A stretch of 55,259 nucleotides of DNA from an uncultured Kiloniellaceae bacterium (GTDB lineage: Bacteria; Actinomycetota; Acidimicrobiia; Spongiisociales; UBA11373). Numbering within the stretch: the first letter of the stretch is position 1; each line of letters starts with the position of its first letter. The notes beneath the pieces are model-generated. The model did no database searches. It worked only from the letters and a program-made list of their open reading frames with translations, and was not told the DNA's origin. Both the position numbers and the translations under genes were made by a program. Location of the stretch: contig CAXMOL010000066.1 of the NCBI GenBank assembly GCA_964194935.1, positions 1 through 55,259 of the forward strand, read 5' to 3'. Shown here one piece after another: positions 19,093 to 52,135 of the stretch.

Positions 19093-19118
19093 ATCGGTGA
19101 CGCGAACCGATTCTTGAG
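19093..19118 (-). promoter_or_regulatory. Putative FliA/WhiG-type promoter (CTCAAG-N14-ACCGAT)
   Basis: Minus strand CTCAAG aatcggttcgcgtc ACCGAT, 28 nt before the kinase ATG. Confidence 0.65.
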
Positions 19119-19184
19119 TCATCGCAGAGGCGGGCGAGTCAGGCTGGCTGGGGTTCAGTCAAGAACAGAGTCTTCCTGGTGCAC

Positions 19185-19455
19185 CTATTGCTCGACCCCG
19201 TAGGAGAGTGCCTCGCCTCCGGAGCCCGTCACAGTGAGACGGCCACCGTCGATCGTGGCGGTGAATCCACCTTCGAGCACGGTGATGACCTGCCCGTCCT
19301 GCCACTTGACGTCGGCACCGCGATCGCCTTGGGCGCCGAACGACGTGAATTGAACCGTGTCGCCAGTGAGGAGGTACTCACCCGAGATCTCACGGCAGCC
19401 CGTGCTGCCGGTAAAGGTCCCGTCGGCGCTGAGACGCAGCGTAAGCAGGGGTGAT
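19185..19455 (-). pseudogene. Truncated META (HslJ-like) domain remnant
   Basis: LTLRLSADGTFTGSTGCREISGEY...QVITVLEGGFTATIDGGRLTVTGSGGEALSY resembles one META domain. It has no signal peptide or credible start, and Arg (CGC) sits where a second Cys is expected. Confidence 0.6.
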
Positions 19456-19502
19456 GGTGAGGTGAGATCCAGGCGCGGATGGCTCGCCGGGCCCATCCGG
19501 CG

Positions 19503-19529
19503 CTCAAGGCGACCGTTTATTCGACCGAT
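19503..19529 (+). promoter_or_regulatory. Putative FliA/WhiG-type promoter (CTCAAG-N15-ACCGAT)
   Basis: CTCAAG gcgaccgtttattcg ACCGAT, 16 nt before the pilin TTG. Confidence 0.65.
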
Positions 19530-19545
19530 TGGGGCCCTACTCGTC

Positions 19546-20025
19546 TTGGAGAGAGCTCTGCGCCGCAACAATCACTCTGACGGTTTCACCCTGATCGAGC
19601 TCATGGTCGTGGTGATGATCATCGCGGTGCTCATCGCGATTGCCATTCCGTCGTTTCTGGGATTCCGAACCAACGCCCAGGACAAGGCAGCCCAAGCGAC
19701 GTTGACGACGGCCGAGAAGGTCACCCACCTGGTCATCCTTGAAGAGGGAAGTGTCCCCTCGAAGGCCACCCTCCTCGTCATGCTTCCGACCATCGAACCC
19801 TCAATCGACTGGATGGACCACGCTGATTCGTCAACGAGTCCGTCGCAGGTCTCAATCGATGATGACAACGGAGGCCAGGAGTTGGCGCTGGCGACCATGT
19901 CTGGGTCCGGGTCCTGCTTCTACCTGAGAGTGATCAACGGGTCGCTACCGGCCCGAAAAGTCGTTCAAGGTGCGGCAACCTGTGCGTCTCACGACTTCCA
20001 GGGCGGAGCCGACACCGGCTGGTAA
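19546..20025 (+). CDS. Type IV pilin / prepilin-like protein
   Basis: Class III signal G|FTLIELMVVVMIIAVLIAIAIP with Glu+5, and a C-terminal Cys pair. The start codon is uncertain. Confidence 0.88.
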   Translation: MERALRRNNHSDGFTLIELMVVVMIIAVLIAIAIPSFLGFRTNAQDKAAQATLTTAEKVTHLVILEEGSVPSKATLLVMLPTIEPSIDWMDHADSSTSPSQVSIDDDNGGQELALATMSGSGSCFYLRVINGSLPARKVVQGAATCASHDFQGGADTGW

Positions 20026-20107
20026 GAGAGTGCGATAGCCTGGGGCATCGGTCGATCACGGCGGATCAACCTATTGCTGTGGGCGACGTACGATCGAACC
20101 AAGCGGG

Positions 20108-20773
20108 GTGATCCTCTTGCCGATCTCAGACATCGAGATGATCTTGCGGGTGTTGCTTGCCGCGGCACTGGGTGCCGCTCTTGGGATCGAGCGCGAAGTG
20201 CAGCACAAGACTGCGGGCCTCCGAACCCACACTCTCGTTGCGGCCGGTGCCGCGCTTTTTTCAGTGGCGGGGGCATCAGTGGCGGTGGACGGTGCAGATC
20301 CCACCCGGGTTGCCGCCCAGGTGGTGACCGGGATCGGGTTTATCGGAGCCGGCGGAATGATCAAAACCGGATTCACCATGACCGGAATCACCACTGCTGC
20401 CACCTTGTGGTTTGCGGCTGCTCTCGGTGTGGCATCCGGGTTCGGTCTCTATTGGGTCGCATCGGCCGCACTTCTGGTTGCTTTGGCCGCCATGGTCGGA
20501 TTTGCCCCTTTTCGCGGATACATCCGCAGAGGCAAGGTCCAACCACTCGAGATCGAGTATCGGGTCGGTCATGGCACGCTTACGCCGTTGTTCGACACCC
20601 TGAATGCCCTCGGGGCGCAGGCGCACCGGATCTCCATGGTGGAGGATGAGGGCACCCGAACCCTGCGCTGCGAACTCGTCGGAGTCGGGAGAGAGGCCAT
20701 GTCGGGAATCATCTCCTCGCTCCGCGCCCGCCAAGAGGTGATCAGCGTGACCGGTCCGCCCGAATACGAATAG
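20108..20773 (+). CDS. MgtC/SapB family protein with a C-terminal ACT-like domain
   Basis: GIERE, AGLRTHTLV, DPTRVAAQVVTGIGFIGAG and GITTAATLW. Confidence 0.92.
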   Translation: MILLPISDIEMILRVLLAAALGAALGIEREVQHKTAGLRTHTLVAAGAALFSVAGASVAVDGADPTRVAAQVVTGIGFIGAGGMIKTGFTMTGITTAATLWFAAALGVASGFGLYWVASAALLVALAAMVGFAPFRGYIRRGKVQPLEIEYRVGHGTLTPLFDTLNALGAQAHRISMVEDEGTRTLRCELVGVGREAMSGIISSLRARQEVISVTGPPEYE

Positions 20774-20831
20774 CGTCCGGCGGGGTCGCCGAATCTACGT
20801 TCTGCGGTTGCGTGGACGACGGTTGCAGCCG

Positions 20832-21674
20832 TCACGCAGCATGAGCCGCCATCACCCCGACGGTGTGTCCGTTGGTTGCTCCGACAAAGGATTGATCAGC
20901 CACCTCGATCCAGGTTTCTCGAGTGATCGGCTCCGATGCGACTGCCACAGCTCGATACCGACTTTCGCCGGGACCGGTGAGGTGAGTGGCGCGACAGACT
21001 TCGCAGTCCGTTCTGCCTGATCTCTCGGTCATGAACAGACTGTTGCCCCACCTGCTTGCAGCCAGGTGGACTCCATCAGACAAGAGAAGGTTGAGGCGAG
21101 CGGGTTCGGGGGTGATCGCAGCTGCGCGGCTGCTCAGTTCGGGTACGGCATCAGCGAGTAGAGAGACGACATCGTCAACCGAATCTGCTCCAGATAGTGA
21201 ATCGAGACCGTGGGCCGGCATCCGACCCAGTAGCCACAGGAAGATCAGTTCGCTGTCGGTCTCTCCGCGGCGCTGTCGGAGTAGGTGATCAGGGATCTCG
21301 GTCTCCAATTCAACCTTGAGCGCTTCGAATCCGGAGAGGGTGCCGTTATGAGCGAACAGCCAGGGTCCATGAGCAAAGGGGTGGGTGTTGTCGAGCCCAC
21401 CCGAACCGATCGTGGCAGCCCGTACATGGGCGATCGCATTGCGCGATGTGACGCGCTCGGCGGTGTTGCGAAACTCGATGTCGTGGGCGGCGGCTCCAGA
21501 GCTCTTGTACACCGCGGGAGAGCCGTGCTCGTATATCCCGATGCCCCAACCGTCGGGATTGGCGATGCCGCGAGAGTCCGAGATGCTCTGGCGCAAAAGG
21601 GCGTTCTGAGCTTCCACTAGAGAGCATTCGACCCGTGCTGATTGGTTTCCGGTGATCCCGTAGAGGCGGCACAT
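20832..21674 (-). CDS. Class II glutamine amidotransferase (EgtC/YafJ-like)
   Basis: N-terminal MCRLYG nucleophile Cys, NPDGWG, HVRAAT, NTHPF, FAHNG and TDSE. Confidence 0.9.
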   Translation of the reverse strand: MCRLYGITGNQSARVECSLVEAQNALLRQSISDSRGIANPDGWGIGIYEHGSPAVYKSSGAAAHDIEFRNTAERVTSRNAIAHVRAATIGSGGLDNTHPFAHGPWLFAHNGTLSGFEALKVELETEIPDHLLRQRRGETDSELIFLWLLGRMPAHGLDSLSGADSVDDVVSLLADAVPELSSRAAAITPEPARLNLLLSDGVHLAASRWGNSLFMTERSGRTDCEVCRATHLTGPGESRYRAVAVASEPITRETWIEVADQSFVGATNGHTVGVMAAHAA

Positions 21675-21831
21675 GAGGGTTCCTTTCGACCTGTTGAGGG
21701 TCAAAACGCTGCGTCGCGCCGGTGGGTTCGCGATGTGTCGGCTTGGTGACCTTCCGCCCAAGAGACCCATATCCCTGGCCCGCTTGCTCCACGTACCCAG
21801 ACCGACAAGGAGTGCATGATTGTGCGGCGAG

Positions 21832-23298
21832 TCAGGAGCTCTCGCAGGCCACGACCACGGAGCGCCCGGAACACGCATCGTCGCCGGTTCCGCCGAAGAG
21901 GAGGTTGATCGGGCCGGTTCCCTTGAGTAGGTCGGCGCCTGCTTCGCCGAAGATGTGGTCGATCCCGTCGCCGCCATCGACCCGATCGTCTCCGGGGCCG
22001 GCACACACGATGTCATCGCCCGAACCCGCTCGGATCACATCATTGCCGTTCCGTCCGACGATTACATCACGGTTGTCGGTTCCGATGAGAACATCGCCGG
22101 CGTTGCTGCCGAGAATGGTTGCCCGCATACCGGTGCACGAGATCTCGGGCCACGGATCGGTGGCAAGCGCGACATTGGTGGCGTCGAGTCGCAGGGTTCG
22201 CTCCATCGTTCGTTCTATCGACCGGGTCAGGGTCCGCTCGGTCTCGATCCCAAGAGTGAGCGCGTCCTGGGCGGCAAAGACCTGAAGATCATCGACTCGC
22301 ACCCAGGTGGGCACCACTTCGATGCTATCCACGACGAGGCCGCTGGGGCCGTCGACGATATGGAAGAAGAGAAGCTGTCCCTCGTTGGTCGCGTAGTACT
22401 TCGGTCCCCATGCCGGATGCTGATTCGAGACATGGTTGCCCATGCTGTATGCCACGTACTTGCCTTCGACCATTCCGATTGGTTCGACGACGTGGGCGTG
22501 GTGTCCGAGGATCAGGTCCACCGCCGGATCGGACAACACCGATTCTGCGATGTCGTATTGGTAGCCGATCGGATTCGATGTGTACTCGACCCCCCAATGA
22601 AGAGAGAGCACCACGAATTCAGCCCCTCGGGCGCGAGCCCAGCGCGCATCCGACAGAATCGTCTCGACATCGATCTGGTTGGCCGCCCAGGGCTCGTCAT
22701 CGGGCGTGGGGATCCCGTTGAAGTGCTGGCTGAAGGAGAGGTGGGCGATCGTGACCCCCTCGACCTCATACAGGCTCGGCAACCTCTCGGTGGCCGAGCG
22801 GGCGGTACCGGAGTGTCCGATGCCGCGGGCGTCCAACTCATTGAGGGTCGCCATTACACCGGTGGGACCGCCATCGAGCGCGTGGTTGCTGGCGGTGGAG
22901 CACGCATCCCACCCGGCCGCCACCAGAGCGTCGGCGATCTGGTTGGGGGCGACGAATCGCGGGTAGTAGGAGAGGTTGATGTTGTCGCTGCTCAACACGC
23001 TCTCGAGGTGGCAGATCGAAAAGTCGGCCGCCGAAACCCACGGTTCGATCGACTGCAGCATCGGCCAGAAATCCCATTGCCCCGGTTCGGCTGCGTTGCG
23101 CGCTGCCAAGTCGGCCAGCCGAGAGTGGATCAACACATCGCCGGCCGCGGCGATGGTCAGCGAGCGCGGCGTCTCATCGGCATGGGCGGGGGGCGCCAAC
23201 ATCGCGACGGCAGTCAGCAGGGCGACCAGGTTGCGACCAGGGCTACGGAACTGGGACAGGCTCCGGCTCCCTTTCTGGTGCCGTGGGCGGGGGCTCAT
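21832..23298 (-). CDS. Secreted CapA (PGA_cap) metallophosphatase-family protein with C-terminal RTX-like Ca-binding repeats
   Basis: Signal peptide ending AHA, AGDV, ASNHALD, SLHWGVEY, GHHAHV and YSMGN. The C-terminus carries GxGDD-type nonapeptide repeats. Confidence 0.88.
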   Translation of the reverse strand: MSPRPRHQKGSRSLSQFRSPGRNLVALLTAVAMLAPPAHADETPRSLTIAAAGDVLIHSRLADLAARNAAEPGQWDFWPMLQSIEPWVSAADFSICHLESVLSSDNINLSYYPRFVAPNQIADALVAAGWDACSTASNHALDGGPTGVMATLNELDARGIGHSGTARSATERLPSLYEVEGVTIAHLSFSQHFNGIPTPDDEPWAANQIDVETILSDARWARARGAEFVVLSLHWGVEYTSNPIGYQYDIAESVLSDPAVDLILGHHAHVVEPIGMVEGKYVAYSMGNHVSNQHPAWGPKYYATNEGQLLFFHIVDGPSGLVVDSIEVVPTWVRVDDLQVFAAQDALTLGIETERTLTRSIERTMERTLRLDATNVALATDPWPEISCTGMRATILGSNAGDVLIGTDNRDVIVGRNGNDVIRAGSGDDIVCAGPGDDRVDGGDGIDHIFGEAGADLLKGTGPINLLFGGTGDDACSGRSVVVACESS

Positions 23299-23327
23299 CG
23301 GGGATGAGTGCCGGTTGGGCGAGTGGC

Positions 23328-24167
23328 TCAGAGCGAGTCGTCGTCGGCTGCCTGGATTAGGAACCGTTCGATCTCGGCACCAATTTCCTCACCCGATGCA
23401 ACCTCACCCTGGGCGTCGTAGAGGGCTTCCAACTGAGACACGACGCCGGCGACGCCGTCCTGCTCTTCGACGGCTTCGTCCAGGTTGTGCCTTTGGTCCG
23501 AAGCATCATCGACCAGGGAGCCAAGCGGAATCCTGACTCCGAGGTGACGTGATAGCCGCTCGACAAGAGTCACGACTGCGGGGTGGTAGATACCTCCGAC
23601 GTAGTGGGGGACACGTGCCCAGAGGCCGACGGTGGGAATCTCTCGATCTGCCAACACGTCGGAGATTGCGCTCACGATCGAAGCAGGAACGCGCAGCACT
23701 CCCTGTGGGTGGTTGGCGTCGTCGCCGAGAAGATCGGGACGCGAAGATGTAGTCACCACGATGGTCGGGCGAGTGTGGGGTGCCGCCCACGGTATTCCGC
23801 CGAGGGAGACGTGTTGCACAACGCCGAGCTCGGCTGCGAGGTCCGCCACTGCAGTAGCAAATGCACGCCACTTCCAGTTTGGCTCCGGCCCGGTGAGGAT
23901 CAGAAGATCGCGTCCCTCGACGCTGCTGTGGCGAATCGTCACCTCGGGCCAGCGGATCTCCTTGGCGATGCCGTCGACGAACTCGAGCGAAGGCCGATTT
24001 ACTCGGTAGTCGAATAGTTCGTCGGGGTCGAAGGTGGCAATGACATCGCCATCGGCGGCGATGTGGTTGGCAGTGGCGGTCCCTGCGGCGCCCGCACTGA
24101 CCCACCCGTCGAATGCCGCGATGAGTGCCGGGGCGGTCAGGTCGGCGTGATCGAGCAGTTCATACAT
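23328..24167 (-). CDS. PAC2 family (proteasome assembly chaperone-like) protein
   Basis: AFDGWVSAG, DELFDYRVNRP, GPEPNWKW, PHTRP and WARVPHY. Confidence 0.88.
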   Translation of the reverse strand: MYELLDHADLTAPALIAAFDGWVSAGAAGTATANHIAADGDVIATFDPDELFDYRVNRPSLEFVDGIAKEIRWPEVTIRHSSVEGRDLLILTGPEPNWKWRAFATAVADLAAELGVVQHVSLGGIPWAAPHTRPTIVVTTSSRPDLLGDDANHPQGVLRVPASIVSAISDVLADREIPTVGLWARVPHYVGGIYHPAVVTLVERLSRHLGVRIPLGSLVDDASDQRHNLDEAVEEQDGVAGVVSQLEALYDAQGEVASGEEIGAEIERFLIQAADDDSL

Positions 24168-24212
24168 CTGGCCGAAGCGTAGGGGTGGAGCCTGACCTGT
24201 GCGGAGATCGGT

Positions 24213-25427
24213 CTAGCTGAAGTCCTCACATCCGTCGGCGCCGGCTCCGATGTACCACGCCTGCCGATCTGTCGCCGTCTCGCCTAGCCCAAACCCGGCG
24301 AGCATTCGCTCCTCGAAGTTGGTGAGTCCACGCAATTCGTCGAAGAAGTCGGCGTCCCCGTACAGGTCCTCAAAGGCTTCGAGCGACGATCCAAGAGTGA
24401 ACTCCTCGTCGGTCCCCAGGCCCCGGGCGAGCGGATCCAGCGAGCCGATGTCGAATGATCGGTAGGCGTACTGCGCAAAGAACGGAGTTCCTCCGAGGTC
24501 GGCGAAGTCGACTTCGAGCACCGCAGGGTGGTTTCCACCGGCATCGGCTGCCTGGATTATCCAGGTCAGGTGGCGGTTGGTTCCGGTGCATCCCGGAATC
24601 CCGGCCTGCCATCCGGTATCGACAAAGGGTGGTCCCAGCACGAGTGCGACGACGGCAATGGTGTTCTCGACGTCATCTCCGATATCGGCGATCGCCAGTC
24701 CTTCGGGTGCGAGTTTCATTGGGCCGAAATCCGACGCCAAGACATTGGGGGAGCGGGTGCTGACCTCGATCGTGAAAGATGTCTCGTTTGCTGCGGAGAT
24801 CTGGATTCTGTATTGCTGGGCTTTGGCTATCTCGGCTTCGAATGGCCCGGCCGCATTGCTGCTGTCGAGCACAGTTCCGTCGACCCCGGTTACGTCGATC
24901 TCGACGAGGCCCTGCGTGGTCTGCAGGCCGAGGACTTGCCCTTCTCTGCCGTCGATGATGAACACCTCTTCGTCGCCCGGTGCGGTGCTTCCGGCGATTT
25001 CGACGCTGGTTGCACCGTCGGCGAACGTGACGGTTCGTTCGTCGCGACAATCACGGGCCAGCGAGGCAAAGGTTGCTTCATCGGGATCACCGGTCGGGAT
25101 TCGTCGCAATTCGGCTTGGTAGTAGGCGACCGCGTCGGCGGTGATGGGGCCGAATGATCCGTCGATCGTGACCGCCCCTCCCTCGGCCGACGGCTGCCCA
25201 TGCCCGGTGCACACCAAGTAGAACTGCAGAGCCTCTACGTACGGCCCCTTCTCGGTTTCCTGGATGAACGCTGGTCCGTTGGCGCTGAGAATGATTCGAC
25301 CGCCCGGTTGAGTGGTCGTGGTAACTGCGGCGGTCGAGGTGGTTGTGGTCGGAATGGCCGAAGTTGTGCATGCCGAGCCGAGCAGGGCAAAGCCTGCGAG
25401 GAGACCAGCAATCCGCTTGTGGCGCAC
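24213..25427 (-). CDS. Lipoprotein with a peptidoglycan-binding domain
   Basis: Lipobox LGSAC, a Thr-rich linker and [17 protein letters not shown]...TG (PG_binding_1-like). Confidence 0.75.
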
Positions 25428-25548
25428 GCCGCAACTCTACGACGGCCGGTGGCCCACGGTCACGCACCGAATAAATAGGGCCCATCCAGAGGTTCTGCAG
25501 TTAACTGAGCAGGCGTATCCTCGGCTCATATCACGGAAGGACACCCCA

Positions 25549-26730: not shown

Positions 26731-26771
26731 CCGACACTCAGCAGGCTCCTAGGGCCGAGTGAATTGGAGAG

Positions 26772-26815
26772 CCCTGATGGACTAGTCGGGAACCATGGAG
26801 ATGGTCCCGTCAGGG
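26772..26815. terminator. Inverted repeat between convergent genes (possible bidirectional terminator)
   Basis: CCCTGATGG...CCGTCAGGG with an inner ACCAT-GGAG-ATGGT hairpin; no U-tract. Confidence 0.4.
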
Positions 26816-26818
26816 TGA

Positions 26819-27745: not shown

Positions 27746-27854
27746 TTTGTGAGGCTACCTGTACAGGGGACCGCTACCGGTGGGCGAGCACGCGCGGAGC
27801 GCGCGAGAAATCCCCTGTTGGAGAGGGGGCAGAGTGTAGATTTGGACCCGTTGG

Positions 27855-28121: not shown

Positions 28122-28168
28122 TCTGCGGTCGGGCTTGATTCATCGCTGTCGGGCGGACGAGCCGGTCT

Positions 28169-29719
28169 TCAGTGTGGGTCGATGTCGGGGCGTTGCGATT
28201 CGACATCACCCGGCGGGTACCACCAGTCTTGATCGATCGGTCTGGCCTCCCTGACATTCCCGATCTGGCTCACCTGTGCCTCGTCCGAAACTGCCTCCTC
28301 CGGAACAATGGTTGGAGCCCGTGCCGGAAATGGATCGGGCGGAAGGACGAGTTCCTCAGCTTGGGCGAGTTGCAGAGACACTTCGAAAACCGTGAGGTCG
28401 CCGTCTCGCCGATAGCCGATCTTGCCTCCCATCCCGTCTGCGAGGACCTTCGATATCGAGAGCCCAAGACCGACGCTTCCCATGATCAGAGGGTCATCAC
28501 CGCGGTGGACGAACCGTTCGAACATCCGAGATTCGACCTCAGGCGGAACCCCGGGTCCGTTGTCGACGACCTCGATGACGTAGGTCGAGTCCTCGAGTCG
28601 CCCCGAGATCTCGACGCGACCGCCGCCGTACTTCGCCGCGTTGGAGACAAGGTTGCGTAGAAGCTGACGTAACCGGCCGGGGTCGGCCAGTACGAGTTCG
28701 CTGGCCATGTCCAGGTCGATTTGGGCATCCGACCGCTCGAACTCATGCCCGAGGCTGGCAACCAATTCAGCGATCTCGGTCGGCCTGAGGTCAAAGCGGA
28801 GTCTGCCGGCATCGGCTTGGCCCGATACAAGAAGGTCTTCGACCATGCGGGTGAGGTCGGCCGACTGGTCGATGATGACTTCGGTGAGTTCCTTGGTCAG
28901 GTCGAGATCTGCAAATCCCTCGTCCGACATGGCCAGCGCCGAGGTGTATATACCGGTGAGAGGTGTGCGGAGTTCGTGGGAGAGGTTGGCAATGAGTTGG
29001 TCCTTCGACTTGTTGAGCGCCCTTTCTTGCTCCAGTTCGACGGTCATCCACTCGCGTTTTCGTCTCCGACGGGAAACCAGGAATGCGACGACAACGGCCA
29101 CCGAGGGGACGAAGAACGCGACCATGAAGCGACTCGCAGTGGCGATGGTTCCGGACTCTGCCGCCGCACCCGCTATCCCAGCCGCCATTTCGTCGCGCAA
29201 GTCGGCCAGTTGATTTACTAGAGCACCGAACGAGTTGGACGATGCTCCGGTGGCGATACTGCTGGCACTCTCCAGATCGCCGATGGTGATGGCATCCAGC
29301 ACCTGTTCGGAGTCAGCGAGGACGGCCGCAAGGCTCAGCTCGAAGTCGGTTGCTTCAATGCCGTCGGTGGGTTCGGCGGGCTCTTCGGAGTCTGTGAGGG
29401 CGGTGACCACGGCAGTCACCCGTTGCTCCATGGCATCAATAACCGACTGGGCTTCGAATACTGCAGCTGCCGACAGTGAAGGATCGTTGGTGGAGCCTGC
29501 AATCAAAAGAGCCTGGCCGAGCGCGTTTCGGGCCGATGCCGCTGCTCCCAACGCCGATTCGGCCTCTTGTTGAAGGCGGGCATTGTCTGCGACCGCAACC
29601 ACTCCTGTGGCGTTGGTAAAGACGAGTGCGAGCGCGGCGAGCAATCCAGCCGCCGCCACGAGGGCACCGCCAGCAAGAGCGCGTCCCGGCGCGCCCGCCT
29701 GAGCTTGAACGTCTTCCAC
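28169..29719 (-). CDS. Membrane sensor histidine kinase (orphan)
   Basis: Two TM segments flanking an extracytoplasmic region, ANLSHELRTPLT, RNLVSNAAKYGG, DNGPGV and GLGLSISK. Confidence 0.92.
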   Translation of the reverse strand: MEDVQAQAGAPGRALAGGALVAAAGLLAALALVFTNATGVVAVADNARLQQEAESALGAAASARNALGQALLIAGSTNDPSLSAAAVFEAQSVIDAMEQRVTAVVTALTDSEEPAEPTDGIEATDFELSLAAVLADSEQVLDAITIGDLESASSIATGASSNSFGALVNQLADLRDEMAAGIAGAAAESGTIATASRFMVAFFVPSVAVVVAFLVSRRRRKREWMTVELEQERALNKSKDQLIANLSHELRTPLTGIYTSALAMSDEGFADLDLTKELTEVIIDQSADLTRMVEDLLVSGQADAGRLRFDLRPTEIAELVASLGHEFERSDAQIDLDMASELVLADPGRLRQLLRNLVSNAAKYGGGRVEISGRLEDSTYVIEVVDNGPGVPPEVESRMFERFVHRGDDPLIMGSVGLGLSISKVLADGMGGKIGYRRDGDLTVFEVSLQLAQAEELVLPPDPFPARAPTIVPEEAVSDEAQVSQIGNVREARPIDQDWWYPPGDVESQRPDIDPH

Positions 29720-29730
29720 TGACTAGTGAG

Positions 29731-29757
29731 ATCGGTGGAAACGGGGTGATCCTTGAG
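29731..29757 (-). promoter_or_regulatory. Putative FliA/WhiG-type promoter (CTCAAG-N15-ACCGAT)
   Basis: Minus strand CTCAAG gatcaccccgtttcc ACCGAT, 11 nt before the kinase GTG. Confidence 0.65.
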
Positions 29758-29789
29758 TCCTGGTCGCATCTATGCCGATGTTTCTAACG

Positions 29790-30719
29790 ATGACCCTTCT
29801 CAAGCCGCGCCCGGCGCGTATTGCGGCCTGCTTATTGGTGGGCGCACTCGTCATGGTTCCGCTCAGCGCCAATGCTGCGCCTACTGGCGCTGTGCCGAAT
29901 GATGATCTTGCCGCTGCAAGCTACCGAGCCAATAACGAGGACGACCCTGCCAAGAACGCGGAAAAAGAGGCCGTAGCGGCGGCTAAGGAAGCGGAGCGGG
30001 TGGCGGAGGCGGCGGCCAGGGAAGAGGCAAGGGTGGCTGAGGCGGCGGCCAGGGAAGAGGCAAGGGTGGCTGAGGCGGCGGCCAGGGAAGAGGCAAGGGT
30101 GGCTGAGGAGGTGGCCAAGGAAGAGGCAAGGGTGGCTGAGGAGGTGGCCAAGGAAGAGGCAAGGGTGGCTGAGGAGGTGGCCAAGGAAGAGGCAAGGGTG
30201 GCTGAGGCGGCGGCTCGCGAGGAGGAGAAGGCTGCTGAGGAGGATCCAGTCGGAGCAGTCACGGGGCCAGGCGGTGCTTCACCAAGCCCGTCGCCTGTCG
30301 GGGCGACGCCTGCCGAGGGCCCCCCCGACGGCGCGGCCGTATCGATTGATCAAGTGCTTGTCCCCACTCATCTCAGTGCAGCGATGGAGTTGTTCGATCA
30401 ACAGGCTGAGGCTTCGAGCTCGGTTCCGGCTCCGGTGACAACGCCGACGGGGATGGTCTCCGGGAGTCTGGTACGAGAGCTGGCGCCGGTGCTGCCTCCG
30501 TTGCTGACTGACGTAGTAGCGGCTCCATTCGTGGTCATCGAGGCGCTCATCGCCGCGATGGCGGCGAGTGGCCAGGCACTGGTGATTCCGCTCCTTGCCG
30601 GTGCTGCTGGGTTCATGGCACCGGTTGTACGTCGTAAGCATCTTCTGGCTGAAGCGCTTGGCAAGAATTCCGAACCTGTTCCATCGAATGAACCGAGAAC
30701 TGTCTTCATCGGTTGGTGA
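29790..30719 (+). CDS. Exported surface protein A: 11-aa Glu/Ala repeat stalk and C-terminal hydrophobic anchor
   Basis: Signal peptide MTLLKPRPARIAACLLVGALVMVPLSANA|AP, EEARVAE(AAAR/EVAK) repeats and a C-terminal hydrophobic stretch plus RRK. Start set by alignment with the paralog. Confidence 0.8.
   Translation: MTLLKPRPARIAACLLVGALVMVPLSANAAPTGAVPNDDLAAASYRANNEDDPAKNAEKEAVAAAKEAERVAEAAAREEARVAEAAAREEARVAEAAAREEARVAEEVAKEEARVAEEVAKEEARVAEEVAKEEARVAEAAAREEEKAAEEDPVGAVTGPGGASPSPSPVGATPAEGPPDGAAVSIDQVLVPTHLSAAMELFDQQAEASSSVPAPVTTPTGMVSGSLVRELAPVLPPLLTDVVAAPFVVIEALIAAMAASGQALVIPLLAGAAGFMAPVVRRKHLLAEALGKNSEPVPSNEPRTVFIGW
29988..30218 (+). repeat. 33-bp coding tandem repeat x7
   Basis: GAAGAGGCAAGGGTGGCTGAGG(CGGCGGCCAGG/AGGTGGCCAAG); the first copy is degenerate. 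Confidence 0.95.
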
Positions 30720-30831
30720 GCGCCTGCACATTCCAGTGCGGTGCTGCATGGACCATCGTTCCTAACTAGTCACCCTGCCCGACCAGGGTTGATTCTTGAG
30801 TATTGGTAGCCCGGATGTCGATACTTTCCAT

Positions 30832-31773
30832 ATGACTCATGTCAAGCCGCACCTGGCGCGTTTCGCAGCCTTCTTCTTGGTGGGTGCACTCGTTATGGCT
30901 CCACTTGGTGCAAGTGCGGCCCCGCCTGTGGTGGTGCCTGGTGACGATCTCGTCGCGGCGAGCTACACGGAAGAGGATCCCGAGAAGGCGGCCAAGGAAG
31001 ACGAGAAGCCGGTCAAGGAAGACGAGAAGGCGGCCAAGGAAGACGAGAAGGCGGTCAAGGAAGACGAGAAGGCGGCCAAGGAAGACGAGAAGGCGGCCAA
31101 GGAAGACGAGAAGCCGGTCAAGGAAGACGAGAAGCCGGTCAAGGATCCCGAGAAGCCGGTCAAGGATCCCGAGAAGGCGGCCAATAGCGGTAACAGCGGT
31201 AATCCCGGCAACGGCAATAACGGCAATGACGGTGAGAACGGCAATAGTGGCACCGAGAACCCCGGCAACAGTGGCACCAGCGGTAATCCCGGCAATGGCA
31301 ATAACGGCAATGACGGCGAGAACGGCAACAGTGGCAATGCTGGCCGAGCCGGAGTGGCCCCAGGGTTAGGCGCGGCGCCTCCCAGCCTGACACCTTCCGG
31401 GGTAACCCCGACCCAGGGCGGACTCGGATCGATCGATGCTCGCGTCCTACCTGTTCATCTCGGTGCTGCGATCGTGATCTTCGACCAGAACAACGAGACC
31501 GTGACCTCGATCCCAGAGCCTGTGGCACCGCCGATGGGGATGGTTTCGGAGAACTTGATACGAGAACTGGCACCGGTGCTGCCGCCAATGCTGGTCGACG
31601 TAGTCGCGGCGCCCTTCGTGGTGATCGAGGCTCTAATCGACGCGATGGCGTCGAGTGGCCAGGCGTTGGTGATCCCATTCCTCGCCGGTGCGGCCGGGCT
31701 TATGGCGCCGGGTGTACGCCGCAAGAATCTCCTGGCCCAAGCGCTTGGCCAGAATCCCGACTCGGGTTCGTAA
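30832..31773 (+). CDS. Exported surface protein B (paralog of A): 7-aa charged repeats, Gly/Asn repeats and the same C-terminal anchor
   Basis: MTHVKPHLARFAAFFLVGALVMAPLGASA|AP; the C-terminus aligns with protein A. Confidence 0.8.
   Translation: MTHVKPHLARFAAFFLVGALVMAPLGASAAPPVVVPGDDLVAASYTEEDPEKAAKEDEKPVKEDEKAAKEDEKAVKEDEKAAKEDEKAAKEDEKPVKEDEKPVKDPEKPVKDPEKAANSGNSGNPGNGNNGNDGENGNSGTENPGNSGTSGNPGNGNNGNDGENGNSGNAGRAGVAPGLGAAPPSLTPSGVTPTQGGLGSIDARVLPVHLGAAIVIFDQNNETVTSIPEPVAPPMGMVSENLIRELAPVLPPMLVDVVAAPFVVIEALIDAMASSGQALVIPFLAGAAGLMAPGVRRKNLLAQALGQNPDSGS
30973..31182 (+). repeat. 21-bp coding tandem repeat x10
   Basis: Units K(ED/DP)EK(AA/PV/AV), e.g. AAGGAAGACGAGAAGGCGGCC. Confidence 0.95.
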
Positions 31774-38137: not shown

Positions 38138-38181
38138 GATGGACGATTCTACGGATCACCTGCTCGGGTAGCCTCGCTGAG

Positions 38182-41646: not shown

Positions 41647-41670
41647 GAGGCGCGAGCCTATTCTCTTGTT

Positions 41671-43295: not shown

Positions 43296-43299
43296 GGCG

Positions 43300-44043: not shown

Positions 44044-44114
44044 GGGGAGGCGAGCGTAGGCCGACACCGTTCGTTGCACCTCAGAACGCCTATTGGCGAC
44101 CATAATCGATGGGT

Positions 44115-44831: not shown

Positions 44832-44975
44832 CCCGTCTGCTGCGCTTGGGTGTCGAACGTCGATACTCTCTGATCTTCCGACGACAGGGACCTACGCATC
44901 TTCCATTCCGGCGGCTGGTGGTCGTACATCAAATATGACGAGGAGCAGGATCGACCTCGTCTAGATCGTCAACTG

Positions 44976-46799: not shown

Positions 46800-46832
46800 A
46801 GGCCATCTCATCACCCCGGGTATCGTGACGTC

Positions 46833-48110
46833 GTGCTCCGACTAGTCGTCGCCGTCAGCCTCGGTCGCCTTGCGGGGTTCCTGAGTCGCCTTATCGGGCG
46901 GGGTGGTTCCGCGATTCCCGGCCTGGTGGCGGGCAAGATCGACGGCGGTGTCATCGACAAGCTGGTGGCCTCCATCCCCGGCGGTGTCGTGATCATCACC
47001 GGCACCAACGGAAAGACGACGACCACCAAGATGCTGGTGACCGCGCTCGAGAGGAGCGGAAAGCCAGTACTCACCAATCCGACCGGGTCGAATCTGGAGA
47101 GAGGGGTAGCGACGGTTCTCATCTCGGCATCGCGGCGCGGTCGTATCCGGGGTTACGAGATGGCCGTGTTCGAGATAGATGAGGCCGCTGTGAGCGTGTT
47201 GGCCCCGAGGCTCGATCCTCGCCTGGTAGTCGTCACCAACCTGGCGCGCGATCAACTGGACCGTTATGGCGAGTTGGATGCCACGGCAGCTCACCTCGGC
47301 ATCGCAGTGGACGCAGCCAAACGAGCCGTTCTCAATGCTGACGATCCCGCTGTCGCCGCACTGGACGTCGGTCGCACCGCTTGGTTCGGTGCGGTTGGCG
47401 AGATCCGTCGCACCATGCCTCACGATGGCGTGCTCTACGGCACCGATGGTCCCGACGCTCCCGCAGTCGAGGTGGATGGGTTGCTCGAGGCTGCCGAACC
47501 TGAGGATGATGGCCAGCGGATAACCGTTGCCGTGGCCGATACTCGAGTGGAAATCGCCCTGCGGGTGCCCGGTGCCTACAACGGATACAACGCAACTGCG
47601 GCGCTGTTGGCTGCTGCAGAACTCGGCGTCGATCCGATCGCGGCTGCTGCATCCCTCGAGCAGATGTCTCCAGCCTTTGGTCGGGGTCAGGTGATCATCT
47701 TCAAGGATCGCCGTATCAAACTGCTGCTCGTAAAGAACCCGGCCGGGTTCAATCAAGCCCTGAGGCTTCTGGTCGATGCTCCACATCCGGCCCAGGTGCT
47801 CATCGCCATCAACGACAACCACGCCGATGGTCGCGACGTGTCGTGGCTGTGGGACGTCAGTTTCGAAGATCTGCAACACACCGAGCACAGGATCGGTACC
47901 AGCGGCACCCGCGCCGCCGACATGGCGCTCCGCCTCAAGTATGCCGGGATCGAGAGCTGGTCCGAGCCGGGACTCGGCGAAGCGTTGGCCGAGGTAGTCA
48001 CGCTGTCGGCCGATGGCGAGACGATCTACGTCATTCCTACCTACACCGCCATGTTGTCGCTGCTCGACCTGCTCTTGCCGGGAACGGCGCGATCGGCTGC
48101 CTGGACATGA
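46833..48110 (+). CDS. murT: Lipid II isoglutaminyl synthase subunit MurT
   Basis: GTNGKTTT, RDQLDRYGE, KNPAG and DGRDVSWLWD (DUF1727). Confidence 0.92.
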   Translation: MLRLVVAVSLGRLAGFLSRLIGRGGSAIPGLVAGKIDGGVIDKLVASIPGGVVIITGTNGKTTTTKMLVTALERSGKPVLTNPTGSNLERGVATVLISASRRGRIRGYEMAVFEIDEAAVSVLAPRLDPRLVVVTNLARDQLDRYGELDATAAHLGIAVDAAKRAVLNADDPAVAALDVGRTAWFGAVGEIRRTMPHDGVLYGTDGPDAPAVEVDGLLEAAEPEDDGQRITVAVADTRVEIALRVPGAYNGYNATAALLAAAELGVDPIAAAASLEQMSPAFGRGQVIIFKDRRIKLLLVKNPAGFNQALRLLVDAPHPAQVLIAINDNHADGRDVSWLWDVSFEDLQHTEHRIGTSGTRAADMALRLKYAGIESWSEPGLGEALAEVVTLSADGETIYVIPTYTAMLSLLDLLLPGTARSAAWT

Positions 48111-48820
48111 CCGAAATAGTCATCGCCCACTTGTACCCGCGTCGGATGAACATCTACGGCGATACCGGCAACGTGATCGCTCTCAGTCGGCGACTCGAAT
48201 GGCGGTCGATTCCCTTTCGGGTGGATCTTGTCGAGGTCGGAACTGAATATGACCTGCTCAACGCGGACGTGGTGGTGGCAGGTGGGGGAGAGGACACTTC
48301 ACAGATAAGCGTCGCCCATGATCTGGTCGCCAGAGCGGATAACGTTCATGCCGCAGTCGACTCCGGAGTTGCCTTCCTGGTCGTGTGCGGGACCTATCAA
48401 TTGTTCGGGCGCCGGTTTGTGGCATCGGACGGGTCCGAGCTTCAGGGCATCGGGGTCTTCGACGCCGATACGGTCGGCGGAGATGGTCGGATGATTGGCA
48501 ATGCCGTCGTCGCGACCGAGTTCGGTCGCCTCGTCGGTTTCGAGAACCATGGTGGTCGCACGCTGCTCGACATCGGCCAAGCTCCGCTCGGGCAGGTGGT
48601 CAGGGGCAACGGCAACAATGACTCCACAGGCGAAGAGGGAGCAGTGACCAACAACTGCTTCGGAACCTACCTCCACGGTTCGGTGCTACCGAAGAATCCG
48701 ATATTTGCCGATGAGTTGTTGCGTCGCGGGATGGAGCGGCGCCATGGTGGGGTGTCCTTGCAGCAACTGGATGACACGGCAGAACTTGCGGCGGCGGAGT
48801 CTGCTGCTCTGCGACCGTGA
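48107..48820 (+). CDS. gatD: Glutamine amidotransferase subunit GatD (CobQ-like)
   Basis: MNIYGDTGN, VCGTYQLFG, GFENHGG and TYLHGSVLPKNP. ATGA overlap with murT. Confidence 0.92.
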   Translation: MTEIVIAHLYPRRMNIYGDTGNVIALSRRLEWRSIPFRVDLVEVGTEYDLLNADVVVAGGGEDTSQISVAHDLVARADNVHAAVDSGVAFLVVCGTYQLFGRRFVASDGSELQGIGVFDADTVGGDGRMIGNAVVATEFGRLVGFENHGGRTLLDIGQAPLGQVVRGNGNNDSTGEEGAVTNNCFGTYLHGSVLPKNPIFADELLRRGMERRHGGVSLQQLDDTAELAAAESAALRP

Positions 48821-48830
48821 CTCGGCGGAA

Positions 48831-49202
48831 TCAGGAGGCGATGCGCTCCGCCTCGTCGTCGACGGCCACCGCAAACTCCAAGCCGTCGGGTGACGAACGC
48901 AGTAGATACATCGCATCGATGTTCATGCCGGCGTCGGCGAGCTGGCGGGTCATTGCGGCGACAGATCCGGGGCGGTCCGGGAGGATCGTGACGATCACCC
49001 GGCGCTCTTCGAAGCTCATACCGTGATGCTCGAGCACTCGGCGAGTGGTGGGCTCATCGTCGACGATCAGCCGGGCGGTTCCGGAGGCATCCATCCCGAC
49101 GGCGGCGAGGGCTTCGATGTTGACGCCGGCGTCGGCGAGTCGCTCTGCGAGGTCGGCCAGCGACCCCGGGCGGTTGGCGAGGTGGACGGTGAACTCCGTC
49201 AT
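48831..49202 (-). CDS. Tandem ACT domain protein
   Basis: NRPGSLADLAERLADAGVNI and DRPGSVAAMTRQLADAGMNI. Confidence 0.88.
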   Translation of the reverse strand: MTEFTVHLANRPGSLADLAERLADAGVNIEALAAVGMDASGTARLIVDDEPTTRRVLEHHGMSFEERRVIVTILPDRPGSVAAMTRQLADAGMNIDAMYLLRSSPDGLEFAVAVDDEAERIAS

Positions 49203-49235
49203 GGTCTAACGATACGCCGATCCTGGCGTTGGTGG

Positions 49236-49586
49236 GTGCTCGTTCTTGCACTGATCGGCGGGTGCAGCGGTTCGGACACTGCCGCGGTCGAGCAGTGTGC
49301 TGATGTGGTGGCGGTCACCACGTCTGCGGACGGTGACGGGTCCTTGACGTTCTCCGTAACCATCCGATCGGATGACATCGGATGGGACGGATACGCCGAC
49401 CGATGGGAGGTCGTCGTCGATGGGGTCGTGGTTGGCGAACGAGTGTTGACCCATCCTCACGAAACCGAGCAGCCGTTTACTCGCTCGCAGGCAGGCATCG
49501 TTGTGAGCGTCGACGAAGTCGTGGTTCGAGCGCATCACTCGGTTGGCGGCTTCTGTGGCACCGAGATGGCGTTTGTGATCGACTGA
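49236..49586 (+). CDS. Conserved exported protein, probably a lipoprotein
   Basis: LIGGC lipobox-like, GWDGYADRWEV, RVLTHPHETEQPFTRS and RAHHSVGGFCG. The start is uncertain. Confidence 0.65.
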   Translation: MLVLALIGGCSGSDTAAVEQCADVVAVTTSADGDGSLTFSVTIRSDDIGWDGYADRWEVVVDGVVVGERVLTHPHETEQPFTRSQAGIVVSVDEVVVRAHHSVGGFCGTEMAFVID

Positions 49587-50465
49587 TCAGGTTCGATCGA
49601 GGAAGTCGATGATGGCTGTGGCAACCGCCTGCGGTTCGTCCTCCTGGAGAAAGTGCCCGGCTCCCTGGATCGTCTCCAGTGGCCCGGCGCCGGGGACGGC
49701 TGCGGCGAATCGCTCGCCAACCCGAGTCGAAAAGATTGGGTCCTGGTCCGAGAAGAGAACCAGCACCGGGTTCGACCATCCCGCCAGCGCATCCGACACC
49801 GCCAGCATCTCCGCCGCCCCGGGATCGTCGGCGGTCAGGGGGACGATTAGGGGCATCCGCCATGCTCCGACCTTGTGATCCATCGTCGGGAAGGGTGCGG
49901 CATAACCGGCGAGGACCTCGGTCCCCCAATCGCTGCCGGAGGCGTTACGCATGACGACCTCGATCGGGAGATCCGGGGTCTTTTCAACGAACGAACGCCA
50001 GGCTTCGAACGCCGGCGTGACCCGACCTTGTCCGGTGAAGAGCGCTGTGTTCATGATTACGAGACGACGAAAGCGTTCGGGTCGTTCGACCGCGGTGCGA
50101 AGCCCGATAGGACCACCCCAGTCCTGGACGACGGCCGTGGCATCTCGAAGATCGAGAGAGTCACATAGATCGACCATCGCTGCCACCATCTGGTCGTAGG
50201 TGTAGAAACCGGGGTCGGTGGGTTTGTCTGACCGACCAAATCCGGGGTAATCGGGAGCGATTACCCGGAATCCTGCTTCGACCAATGGCGGAATCACCTT
50301 GCGGTAGAGGAACGACCACGTCGGCTCTCCATGAAACAGCACGACGACGGGGCCGGTTCCCTCGTCCAGGTAGTGGATACGCATCCCTTCCCAGTCCGCA
50401 AAGTGGGGATCGAATGGGTAATCGACCAGGTCGGAGAATCGATCGTCTGGAGTTCGCAGCGTCAC
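49587..50465 (-). CDS. Haloalkane dehalogenase-like alpha/beta hydrolase
   Basis: LRTPDDRF, HGEPTWS, GFGRSDKP, VQDWGG and AGHFLQED. Confidence 0.9.
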   Translation of the reverse strand: MTLRTPDDRFSDLVDYPFDPHFADWEGMRIHYLDEGTGPVVVLFHGEPTWSFLYRKVIPPLVEAGFRVIAPDYPGFGRSDKPTDPGFYTYDQMVAAMVDLCDSLDLRDATAVVQDWGGPIGLRTAVERPERFRRLVIMNTALFTGQGRVTPAFEAWRSFVEKTPDLPIEVVMRNASGSDWGTEVLAGYAAPFPTMDHKVGAWRMPLIVPLTADDPGAAEMLAVSDALAGWSNPVLVLFSDQDPIFSTRVGERFAAAVPGAGPLETIQGAGHFLQEDEPQAVATAIIDFLDRT

Positions 50466-50986
50466 GGGACGTCGATCTCGGCGGTCGGAAGATCCACTTC
50501 GCCGGTGTCATCGCGAATCGCTGCGGGAATGACCAGAACCGCACGTCCGCAGTCACGCATGACGCGCGCAGACACGCTCTCCCAATGTGACTCATCGAAC
50601 AGTTGCTTGGTGGCTCCGAGCACGACCAGCTCGGCGTCCAGTTCTTCTGCGGCATGCATGATGGTGGTTGCTGGATCCTCTCCTTCGAGGAACACGGTCT
50701 CGGCCTCGATGCCACGGTTGCGCAGGGCTGCGAGCACCGGCTCGGTGATCCGCGCTCCACGTTCATCCACGTAGCGGGCGATGACCCGGTCCTCCTCAGT
50801 GGCCCACTCCGAAGTGGTATCGGTGAGAGGGTGCCACTCTTCGGATCTGATCTCGTCGAGGAAGCTGCGTGGGACCTCTATGACGGTCACGACAAAGACA
50901 TTGCTATCCGGTCCGACGAGATGTGCGATGAATTCAGCAACTGGCTCGGGTGTGAGTACACCAGCGGTGGCTATGAGGATGCGCAC
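50462..50986 (-). CDS. Universal stress protein
   Basis: ILIAT N-terminus, G-DPATTI, LVVLGAT and SVSARV. The stop overlaps the dehalogenase start. Confidence 0.8.
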   Translation of the reverse strand: MRILIATAGVLTPEPVAEFIAHLVGPDSNVFVVTVIEVPRSFLDEIRSEEWHPLTDTTSEWATEEDRVIARYVDERGARITEPVLAALRNRGIEAETVFLEGEDPATTIMHAAEELDAELVVLGATKQLFDESHWESVSARVMRDCGRAVLVIPAAIRDDTGEVDLPTAEIDVP

Positions 50987-51048
50987 GACCGAGAGGTTAT
51001 CGGCGATGCCCTGGTTACGCTCCGCGCCCCGACCAAAGGCCAATCAGA

Positions 51049-51558
51049 ATGGACCAGATCGCCGAGACGACCAACAAGATTCTGTGGTCGATTCCGAATG
51101 TCTTGTGCCTGGTCGGTTCGCGATCCGGCGACGAGTGGAACGCGATGACCACGTCGTGGGTGACACAGGTGGCGATGGAGCCATTGCTGGTGGCGATAGG
51201 AGTAGACCGCAAGGCGCTGACCCATCGGCTCATAGAAGAAGGACAAGCGTTCTCGATCAACTTGTGGGATCGCAACGACACCAGGCCGTTCGTAAAATTC
51301 TCCAAGCCGGCCACGAAGGATGGGATGACGCTCAATGAGCGTGCGATTCGTGAGGGTACGACCGGTACTCCCGTCTTCGAGGAGGCGGTCGCCTATCTCG
51401 AGTGTTCGCTCTGGCAGGCAATCGATTGCGGCTCACACACCTTGTATATCGGCGAGATTGTCGAGTGCGGGTTCCAAAACGATGGCGAAGACATGCCGAT
51501 CGCCCGGATGGAGGACACCCGCATGAAATACGGTGGGGTTCCCCGCGGCGGTCACTAG
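51049..51558 (+). CDS. Flavin reductase-like protein
   Basis: NAMTTSWVTQV, PLLVAIGV and CGSHTLYIGEI. Confidence 0.88.
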   Translation: MDQIAETTNKILWSIPNVLCLVGSRSGDEWNAMTTSWVTQVAMEPLLVAIGVDRKALTHRLIEEGQAFSINLWDRNDTRPFVKFSKPATKDGMTLNERAIREGTTGTPVFEEAVAYLECSLWQAIDCGSHTLYIGEIVECGFQNDGEDMPIARMEDTRMKYGGVPRGGH

Positions 51559-51601
51559 GCGAACGGCAATTGGCCCGCTGGGGCGGGTCACCGCCGACTG
51601 G

Positions 51602-52099
51602 CTATCGGGTGAGGCTGCGCAGCGTCCAGTTGGTCTCGGTGCGCTGGGAACGGGTCAAGGGTCGCCCGGGATGGTTCCAGATGGCTTCGGCGATCCGCCC
51701 ACCCGGCACGACGCCGAGTCGGTCCAGGCGACTGGTCGAGCCGGTAATGGATGTCACCAGCATCGGGTAGGCGAACAATCGATCGCCTACCTTGCGACGC
51801 AGATCGTGGGCTGCCTTTGTGGCGCTTTTGACGATCGTCGTGACCCGGACTTCGTTTCTGTAGATCCCGTCGTCGCGAAGGTCTGCAGGGAGTGGATCGG
51901 AGTCGATCGAGATCGTAAAGACGCCGTTGGGGCCCACGACGACATGATCGATTTCGACGTCGTTGAGGACGATGCGATCGATCGTCTCCCATTCAGCCGG
52001 CAACCGATGCAGCCCTGCAGAGTCGCCTGCTTCTGCGGGCGAGGTCGCTAGGGCTAGATCTGATGCCCAGCCGTTTCCAAGGGTGATTGTCTCGGCCAT
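51602..52099 (-). CDS. NERD-like domain protein
   Basis: EIDHVVVGPNGVFTI, typical of the NERD core. Confidence 0.65.
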   Translation of the reverse strand: MAETITLGNGWASDLALATSPAEAGDSAGLHRLPAEWETIDRIVLNDVEIDHVVVGPNGVFTISIDSDPLPADLRDDGIYRNEVRVTTIVKSATKAAHDLRRKVGDRLFAYPMLVTSITGSTSRLDRLGVVPGGRIAEAIWNHPGRPLTRSQRTETNWTLRSLTR

Positions 52100-52108
52100 T
52101 GCCCTTGG

Positions 52109-52135
52109 ATCGGCTCACTTGTGCGACGGCTTGAG
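52109..52135 (-). promoter_or_regulatory. Putative FliA/WhiG-type promoter (CTCAAG-N15-GCCGAT)
   Basis: Minus strand CTCAAG ccgtcgcacaagtga GCCGAT, 9 nt before ATG 52099. Confidence 0.65.

Follow-up and report, generated by a model that had tools for sequence, protein, structure and literature searches.

The flagellar class-3 promoters of E. coli (FliA) and Bacillus subtilis (SigD) have the form TAAA-N15-GCCGATAA, and transcription from σ28 promoters starts about 8-10 nucleotides (nt) after CCGAT. Elements of related design are described here in the genome of an uncultured member of the Acidimicrobiia. The stretch of DNA that was analyzed ("the window") is 55,259 nt long and constitutes contig C66 of assembly G000 (2.29 Mb, 62% GC, 88% complete). 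It contains four copies of a bipartite element, CTCAAG-N14/15-RCCGAT, and a fifth, divergent element at 29752-29779; these are very probably (the fifth with less certainty) promoters that are read by RNA polymerase with the single σ28-family factor of G000, WhiG. Their -10 element is identical to that of the FliA/SigD promoters, their -35 element is closely related (CTCAAG vs. cTAAAG) and the spacing is equal; unlike the FliA/SigD regulon, this one comes with no flagellar export gene and no FlgM that could be found, and its targets are pili and signaling proteins.

The re-use of σ28 for pili, cyclic di-GMP (c-di-GMP) and development is a theme of the Actinobacteria that would now extend to the Acidimicrobiia, a large class, most of it uncultured, whose members abound in water and soil. 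Two systems invite comparison. In Streptomyces venezuelae, WhiG, RsiG and c-di-GMP make up a sporulation switch (6PFJ/6PFV): its WhiG is the closest solved relative of the G000 σ factor; RsiG is present there, and WhiG acts on whiH, whiI and a small number of other sporulation genes, none of them for pili. For the non-flagellated, unicellular-type Rubrobacter radiotolerans, Schumacher et al. (2021), who also quote TAAA / GCCGATAA as the σ28 consensus, verified 12 promoters of that type by 5'-end mapping; the type IV pilus cluster has three of these, and five precede diguanylate cyclase or phosphodiesterase genes (PMC8325347). The likeness is close: in G000, too, σ28-type promoters are predicted at the pilus cluster (pilB and pilA) and at diguanylate cyclase genes (two with GGDEF domains). 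The differences are several. In Rubrobacter the -35 element is TAAA and WhiG is sequestered by c-di-GMP and an RsiG dimer of the single-motif kind, whereas here the -35 element is CTCAAG and no RsiG motif has been found in G000 or in a complete relative; a NERD-like gene and five orphan histidine kinases stand out among the targets here, most of which look leaderless; and while the Rubrobacter start sites were mapped by experiment, those given below are predicted from sequence.

Denis et al. (2026) have surveyed actinobacterial WhiG1 and WhiG2 with the queries CTCA-N16-17-GCCGA and T(A/C)AA-N16-GCCGA, the central CGA being invariant, and predict functions that include type IV pili and c-di-GMP metabolism; Acidimicrobiia, histidine kinases and leaderless transcripts are not mentioned in their main text (bioRxiv 10.64898/2026.01.14.699351). 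Rewritten as CTCA-N16/17-RCCGA or TCAA-N15/16-RCCGA, the motif of the window matches these published strings. The first-pass annotation of this DNA had recognized a FliA/WhiG signature, and the motif does equal the published actinobacterial consensus (bioRxiv 10.64898/2026.01.14.699351; PMC8325347). Denis et al. find WhiG typically together with a flagellar cluster or RsiG (bioRxiv 10.64898/2026.01.14.699351). The order to which G000 belongs departs from that pattern: WhiG is present in 58 of 61 genomes and FlhA in 2 (a flagellar export gene, FHIPEP/FlhA, is lacking in G000), and the RsiG motif turns up neither in G000 nor in the complete same-family genome G009. The regulon, then, is of the WhiG (σ28) type known from Rubrobacter and from the phylum-wide predictions; it is new in the Acidimicrobiia and not a new mechanism. 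What appears to distinguish it is a CTCAAG -35 element combined with a WhiG of the Streptomyces type, targets among which orphan kinases dominate, the 9-nt leaderless design, a divergent pair with a shared -35 element, and the lack of any RsiG, FlgM or flagellum that could be detected.

In the scheme that we favor, CTCAAG would serve as the -35 element and (G/A)CCGAT(AA) as the -10 element, with 14-16 nt between them; transcription would begin about 8-10 nt after CCGAT, which for many targets would be the A of the start codon; and WhiG would switch on the pilus, sensor-kinase and c-di-GMP genes.

A non-random motif before gene starts

The motif is specific in position, orientation and spacing, it is conserved before orthologous genes, and it co-varies with whiG across genomes. 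An exact pattern search of the window returns four matches, with the same coordinates and strands as in the first-pass annotation; in shuffles that preserve dinucleotides the mean is 0.03 matches, the very figure that had been estimated for chance (~0.03), and none of 100 shuffles yields at least four. All four sites are in non-coding DNA and oriented to a gene start 9, 11, 16 or 25 nt downstream (the upper limit had been put at 28 nt, which is the distance to an ATG three bases past the preferred GTG start of kinase 1). In the genome as a whole the exact pattern occurs six times, and five of these occurrences are intergenic, 9-25 nt before the gene start that they face; the non-coding share of the genome is ~12% by a rough gene caller.

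(A technical note: the gene calls are from a home-made caller, and "promoter-like" is used for matches that are non-coding and no more than 200 nt from a same-strand gene start, a definition that covers 4.2% of genome positions.) Of the 24 matches to TCAAG-N15-17-CCGAT that lie beyond the window, 8 are promoter-like, against this 4.2% baseline (binomial p = 3.8e-6); the motif is thus not as common inside genes as before them, a doubt that had been voiced when it was first noticed. With the wrong spacers, 12-14 and 18-20, the proportion falls to 2/55 (Fisher p = 8e-4). G009 has 10 promoter-like sites at N16, 4 at N17, and 0-2 at every other spacer. The enrichment is, in other words, confined to a CTCA-to-GCCGA spacing of 16-17 nt, and the -35 element is of the σ28 class; so is the -10 element, which reads (A/G)CCGAT at all four window sites, CCGA(T/A) at orthologous sites and the full GCCGATAA before pilA. 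A position weight matrix built from 16 hand-picked sites placed 18 of its 25 matches at 18 bits or more in intergenic DNA, a result that is circular because the seeds were picked as intergenic; it was set aside for the out-of-window and wrong-spacer tests.

In the order to which G000 belongs, 61 genomes yield 384 matches to the exact pattern and 87 to its reversed counterpart, a 4.4-fold difference (Wilcoxon p = 1e-10). Matches number 2.53 per Mb in whiG-positive genomes and 0.59 per Mb, equal to the control, in the two near-complete genomes that have no whiG, both of genus g23 (Poisson p = 0.001). This suggests that the σ factor and its regulon were lost together in genus g23. The whiG-negative pair are G045 and G056; in G045, which was used in the target-gene searches, the kinase-2, DUF4032 and pilin queries find no match.

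Four or five WhiG-type promoters in 55 kb, where ~0.6 would be expected from ~25 genome-wide, amount to a mild cluster, the P value of which (Poisson, ~0.003) is subject to selection, the window having been flagged on account of these same sites. In G003, a genome of the same genus, the kinase-2 and DUF4032 loci likewise share a contig, at a distance of ~24 kb, a syntenic arrangement. The neighbors of the target genes in the window are housekeeping genes unrelated to them (PQ-loop, MgtC, aldo-keto reductase, flavin reductase, Usp).

Conservation and layout of the individual loci

The genes downstream of the four sites had been described as a type IV pilin-like gene, two HisKA/HATPase kinases without neighboring response regulators, and a weakly NERD-like gene, and so they are (Table 1): Pfam searches of the neighboring genes detect no response regulator adjoining either kinase.

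Table 1. Features of the window, the σ factor gene, and predicted WhiG targets in G000
Feature	Location	Strand	Remarks
Orphan membrane histidine kinase 1	17610..19067	-	Pfam HisKA 1.4e-14, HATPase_c 1.9e-18
Predicted kinase-1 promoter, WhiG-type	19093..19118	-	CTCAAG-N14-ACCGAT; exact match; intergenic; 25 nt before GTG 19067
Predicted promoter of pilin-like gene, WhiG-type	19503..19529	+	CTCAAG-N15-ACCGAT; exact match; 16 nt before TTG 19546
Type IV pilin-like protein	19546..20025	+	Class III signal peptide, G/FTLIELMVV; Pfam N_methyl 6.6e-09
Orphan membrane histidine kinase 2	28169..29719	-	Pfam HisKA 4.6e-14, HATPase_c 1.2e-20
ACTAGTCA/CTAGTCA box	29720..29727	-	Between -10 element and kinase-2 start codon
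Predicted kinase-2 promoter, WhiG-type	29731..29757	-	CTCAAG-N15-ACCGAT; exact match; 11 nt before GTG 29719
Fifth element, predicted divergent promoter	29752..29779	+	CTTGAG-N16-GCCGAT; 10 nt before ATG 29790
Secreted low-complexity surface protein	29790..30719	+	Signal peptide MTLLKPRPARIAACLLVGALVMVPLSANA; no Pfam family; divergent from kinase 2; predicted target
NERD-like protein, 165 aa	51602..52099	-	Acidimicrobiia-specific family; predicted target
Predicted promoter of NERD-like gene, WhiG-type	52109..52135	-	CTCAAG-N15-GCCGAT; exact match; ATG 9 nt after CCGAT; begins 2 nt past DUF4032 stop
WhiG orthologue	C148:46216-47004		TIGR02479 FliA_WhiG, 268 bits (cut-off 189.6)
pilB-pilT-pilC (type IV pilus cluster)	C33		Predicted promoter CTCAAG-N15-GCCGAC before pilB
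pilA (type IV pilus cluster)	C33		Predicted promoter CTCAAG-N16-GCCGATAA
Two extra pilin-like genes	Window; C29		Predicted WhiG-type promoters
Flp-like pilin, 50 aa	C112		WhiG-type site; label by motif only
TadE-like gene			Weaker WhiG-type site
Five orphan histidine kinases	Two in window; C68; C142; C79		None with adjacent response regulator
Two GGDEF diguanylate cyclases	C148 (GAF-GGDEF); C79 (membrane GGDEF)		Predicted targets
DivIVA-domain (DivIVA-like) protein			Predicted target
SpoIID/peptidoglycan-binding protein (SpoIID-like wall enzyme)			Predicted target
Receiver-like MinD/ParA-type ATPase	Between rpsA and coaE		Predicted target
Small membrane proteins			Predicted targets

Kinase 2, the NERD-like gene and the pilins have clean phylogenetic footprints, in which hexamers and spacing are kept as the letters of the spacers change. 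At the NERD-like gene the motif keeps company with its target. In 11 of 11 genomes in which the NERD-like gene follows DUF4032, CTCAAG-N15-RCCGAT begins no more than 25 nt (usually 0-5 nt) past the DUF4032 stop and ends 9-10 nt before the ATG; at the 11 intact DUF4032 loci that are without the NERD-like gene, the motif is missing in all 11. The family comprises 66 homologue clusters, nearly all of 160-170 aa, and in an alignment of 18 of its sequences M1 is invariant and A2 nearly so, and the N-terminus is thereby pinned to the ATG that comes 9 nt after the -10 element; the mRNA is probably leaderless. The protein is called NERD-like, and no more than that, because its Pfam NERD (PF08378) score of 21.0 bits (E = 5e-4, residues 33-65 only) is below the gathering cut-off of 22.1; one NCBI homologue carries the name "nuclease-related domain-containing protein".

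Kinase 2 has orthologues across the family, and its promoter is kept as CTCAAG(GATCA)-N15-NCCGA(T/A) in 13 related genomes (41-67% protein identity) in which the spacers drift. The fifth element is on the other strand of this same control region: its CTTGAG is the reverse complement of the CTCAAG hexamer of the kinase-2 promoter itself. In all 12 kinase-2 loci with the upstream region present, the spacing of the resulting layout, (A/T)TCG(G/A)N-N16-CTCAAG-N15-NCCGAN, is invariant, and on the opposite strand of these 12 loci NCCGA(T/A) is followed after 6-11 nt (8-11 nt in 11 of the 12) by an ATG or GTG that opens a low-complexity surface protein with a signal peptide. The C-terminal ~110 aa of the surface protein of the window are 33-57% identical to the divergent open reading frames (ORFs) of 8 relatives; in one further relative the match is limited to the N-terminal region. 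The surface-protein mRNA is probably leaderless. We lean to the view that kinase 2 and the surface protein are served by a back-to-back pair of WhiG-type promoters with one quasi-palindromic -35 hexamer in common, a reading made less certain by two facts: CTTGAG differs from the consensus at two of its strong positions, and no other locus has this layout. (CTTGAG was rejected as a -35 element of wider use, for it shows no enrichment elsewhere, and the divergent element is accordingly treated as locus-specific.)

A second surface-protein gene (30796-31773) stands in tandem with the first. The DNA before it, at 30760-30800, has a ACTAGTCA box and a minus-strand CTCAAG; a CCGAT -10 element is absent from that segment, which may be a degenerate copy of the kinase-2/surface-protein control region.

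Kinase 1 is flanked by a PQ-loop gene and a META-domain gene. Its likelier start is GTG 19067 or ATG 19064, behind the Shine-Dalgarno-like stretch AAGGGAAAAGG, because ATG 19094 overlaps the -10 element. The G003 orthologue (63% identity) retains the promoter as GACTCAAGAATCG...GCCGAA, that is, CTCAAG-N14-GCCGAA, between flanks that have diverged. Further candidate orthologues were rejected as paralogous kinase domains, leaving that of G003 as the single true one.

The pilin-like protein, for which TTG 19546 is the presumed start, is 53% identical to a second pilin encoded on contig C29, the promoter of which reads CTCAAG-N14-GCCGAT; the identity of the window pilin with pilA of the pilus cluster is 46% (residues 2-127). 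Among 30 orthologous and paralogous pilin loci examined, most have a CTCAAG-like -35 element and GCCGA(T/A) -10 element upstream; the pilus-cluster pilins among them have the full CTCAAG-N15/16-GCCGATAA, a ~55-nt leader and an AGGAGG ribosome-binding site. In the segment C29:192-2762 the pilin paralogue, with its WhiG-type promoter, is followed, 30 nt on, by a 669-aa glycosyltransferase-2/cellulose-synthase-like protein that ends in PilZ, a c-di-GMP receptor domain.

WhiG and rival readings of the motif

No σ factor gene had been seen in the window, rightly; the cognate gene sits on another contig. A σ28-family gene, for which the first-pass annotation had proposed to look, is present, and it is the single G000 gene above the FliA_WhiG cut-off. 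It lies in the order xerC-whiG-rpsB-tsf-pyrH-frr, with the xerC-like recombinase gene on one side; Streptomyces whiG sits in the same rpsB-proximal neighborhood. The best solved relative of the protein is S. venezuelae WhiG (6PFJ; 285 bits over the full length, as against 165 bits for E. coli FliA); its closest named records are from metagenome-assembled genomes of uncultured Acidimicrobiia, and many Streptomyces WhiG proteins match it with 56-57% identity. This identity (~57%) and the position beside rpsB bear on the question of membership in the WhiG2 clade, the Streptomyces WhiG type that is not linked to a flagellar cluster. Both flagellated relatives, G037 (C29) and G060 (C1:893889-916057), have FlhA and a second, lower-scoring FliA_WhiG paralogue ~20 kb from flhA; the paralogue is there in addition to a ~270-bit WhiG-type gene, and mirrors the published WhiG1/WhiG2 split. 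Does WhiG govern its own gene? No conserved WhiG-type motif was found upstream of whiG at ~40 Acidimicrobiia whiG loci, and autoregulation through a weak TGAAG-N15-CCGAT before xerC is consequently not claimed.

Several considerations weigh against WhiG promoters as the explanation of all this. The dependence on WhiG is argued from identity of consensus and from two whiG-negative genomes of one genus, and these genomes also lack several of the target genes. The divergent element at the kinase-2 locus departs from the consensus at its two best-conserved -35 positions, and is found nowhere else. At relaxed stringency most matches are noise (with one mismatch allowed there are 372, of which 51 are intergenic), so that the size of the regulon is approximate, and the home-made gene caller makes some start codons uncertain, that of the pilin (TTG) in particular. 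Finally, the link between WhiG and its sites, like the start sites and the leaderless state of the messages, is drawn from the DNA sequence.

That last point leaves room for a different σ factor, all the more as G000 has 13 Sigma70_r2 genes (two group-1/2/3-like factors and several ECF-like ones among them) and as the CTCAAG box differs from the classical TAAA. Yet GCCGAT(AA) with its invariant CGA is the signature of σ28, CTCA and TCAA are reported -35 forms of actinobacterial WhiG, one gene only passes the FliA_WhiG cut-off, and the density of the motif is at background in whiG-negative relatives; the pilus and GGDEF targets, moreover, match the experimentally mapped WhiG regulon of Rubrobacter (PMC8325347). 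A reading by some other alternative σ factor of G000 is therefore unlikely. Still less probable is it that the two boxes are half-sites for a DNA-binding regulator, an operator in place of a promoter. The kinase-2 locus taken by itself would permit this, being a large imperfect inverted repeat, ATCGGC-N16-CTCAAG-N15-ACCGAT, that can be read as a symmetric protein-binding site, and some sites have extra ACTAGT palindromes. The inverted repeat is confined to that one locus, however: elsewhere the boxes are non-palindromic and strictly gene-oriented, their distance of 9-25 nt from the start codons leaves no space for a separate promoter, and a search for a σ70-type consensus promoter at the four sites found none. 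As to chance or a by-product of local composition, the window statistic taken alone is indeed circular, the pattern having been derived from the same four sites, and the exact pattern also matches one coding site (on contig C123); the tests outside the window, the controls with wrong spacers or (in 61 genomes) with the reversed pattern, and the conservation before orthologues reduce this explanation to a vanishingly small probability. Recognition by WhiG is the reading carried forward here.

The predicted regulon and its control

The regulon is predicted to comprise about 20-25 promoters in G000 (Table 1), an approximate figure. The first-pass annotation had spoken of a dispersed surface and motility regulon with its own sensors, and that idea is supported; its four genes were too few, for the pilB-pilA cluster, two GGDEF genes and the fifth, divergent element belong with them. 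The predicted targets recur in G009 with pilB, a pilin, four kinases, the Flp-like gene, a CheY-like receiver and an M23 peptidase. (The 50-aa C112 protein labeled Flp-like has no Pfam match at E < 0.001.)

The distance to the start codon is a recurring feature: at many sites, including those of several other G000 genes, the start codon comes exactly 9 nt after CCGAT, and a second group of kinase paralogues has, order-wide, GTCAA(C/T/G)-N16-CCGAT-N8/9-ATG. With the ATG 9-10 nt after CCGAT and transcription starting ~8-10 nt after CCGAT, many target mRNAs are most likely leaderless or nearly so. For an uncultured lineage this would provide a testable regulon map that puts named pilus genes, sensor kinases and cyclases under common control, many of them probably as leaderless messages; start codons and operons of such metagenome-assembled genomes could be better annotated with its help, and the NERD-like protein, the surface protein and the five orphan kinases are conserved targets worth study.

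How is WhiG held in check? Neither of its known controllers, RsiG and FlgM, is detectable in G000 or in its complete relative. Exact and relaxed six-frame scans for the RsiG signature, E(X)3S(X)2R(X)3Q(X)3D, in G000 (88% complete) and in complete G009 turned up no plausible gene, the hits being antisense or in spurious frames; the search was by motif only, and a divergent RsiG may escape it. The RsiG-like anti-σ that had been suggested as a companion of WhiG is thus not in evidence by motif scan in these two genomes. RsiG has been reported from three Acidimicrobiales isolates (PMC8325347). Searches for FlgM in G000 and G009 by tblastn and motif scan found nothing. Small FlgM-like (Pfam PF04316) ORFs are present in 24 of the 61 relatives, above the Pfam cut-off in 12, and no consistent WhiG-type promoter is associated with them; in those relatives they may be a flagellum-independent anti-σ28. 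Their C-terminus reads LPLPL..RRR..I..G.Y.VPAE.VADAVL (G001, G006, G007, G011, G012, G015, G016, G022, G024 and others; L352-L369).

It is possible, if doubtful, that WhiG is gated here outside both known contexts, FlgM with flagellar export and RsiG with c-di-GMP, and drives a leaderless regulon in which orphan kinases, diguanylate cyclases and pili predominate, and that the conserved kinase-2/surface-protein pair has back-to-back σ28 promoters with a single quasi-palindromic -35 hexamer. Candidate gates would then be an anti-σ factor, feedback through the WhiG-dependent kinases, or a factor that binds the ACTAGT boxes.

A second regulator may use these boxes as its operator, or else they may be a start-site element. 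The core of the box at kinase 2 (Table 1), TAGTCA, is located 4-6 nt past the -10 hexamer in about 11 kinase-2 orthologue loci. ACTAGT/GACTAGTCA boxes also occur in or beside WhiG-type promoters at C142:9722 (a kinase gene), at C79:9219 and 9233 (the membrane GGDEF gene), and at C24:21130, G009:1133930 and L047; intergenic ACTAGT sequences in G000 number only 26. At the C79 GGDEF gene two boxes surround the -10 element, TAAA...ACTAGT-GCCGAA-TG-ACTAGT-CAT-ATG, an arrangement that is kept in G009 and in the more distant L047.

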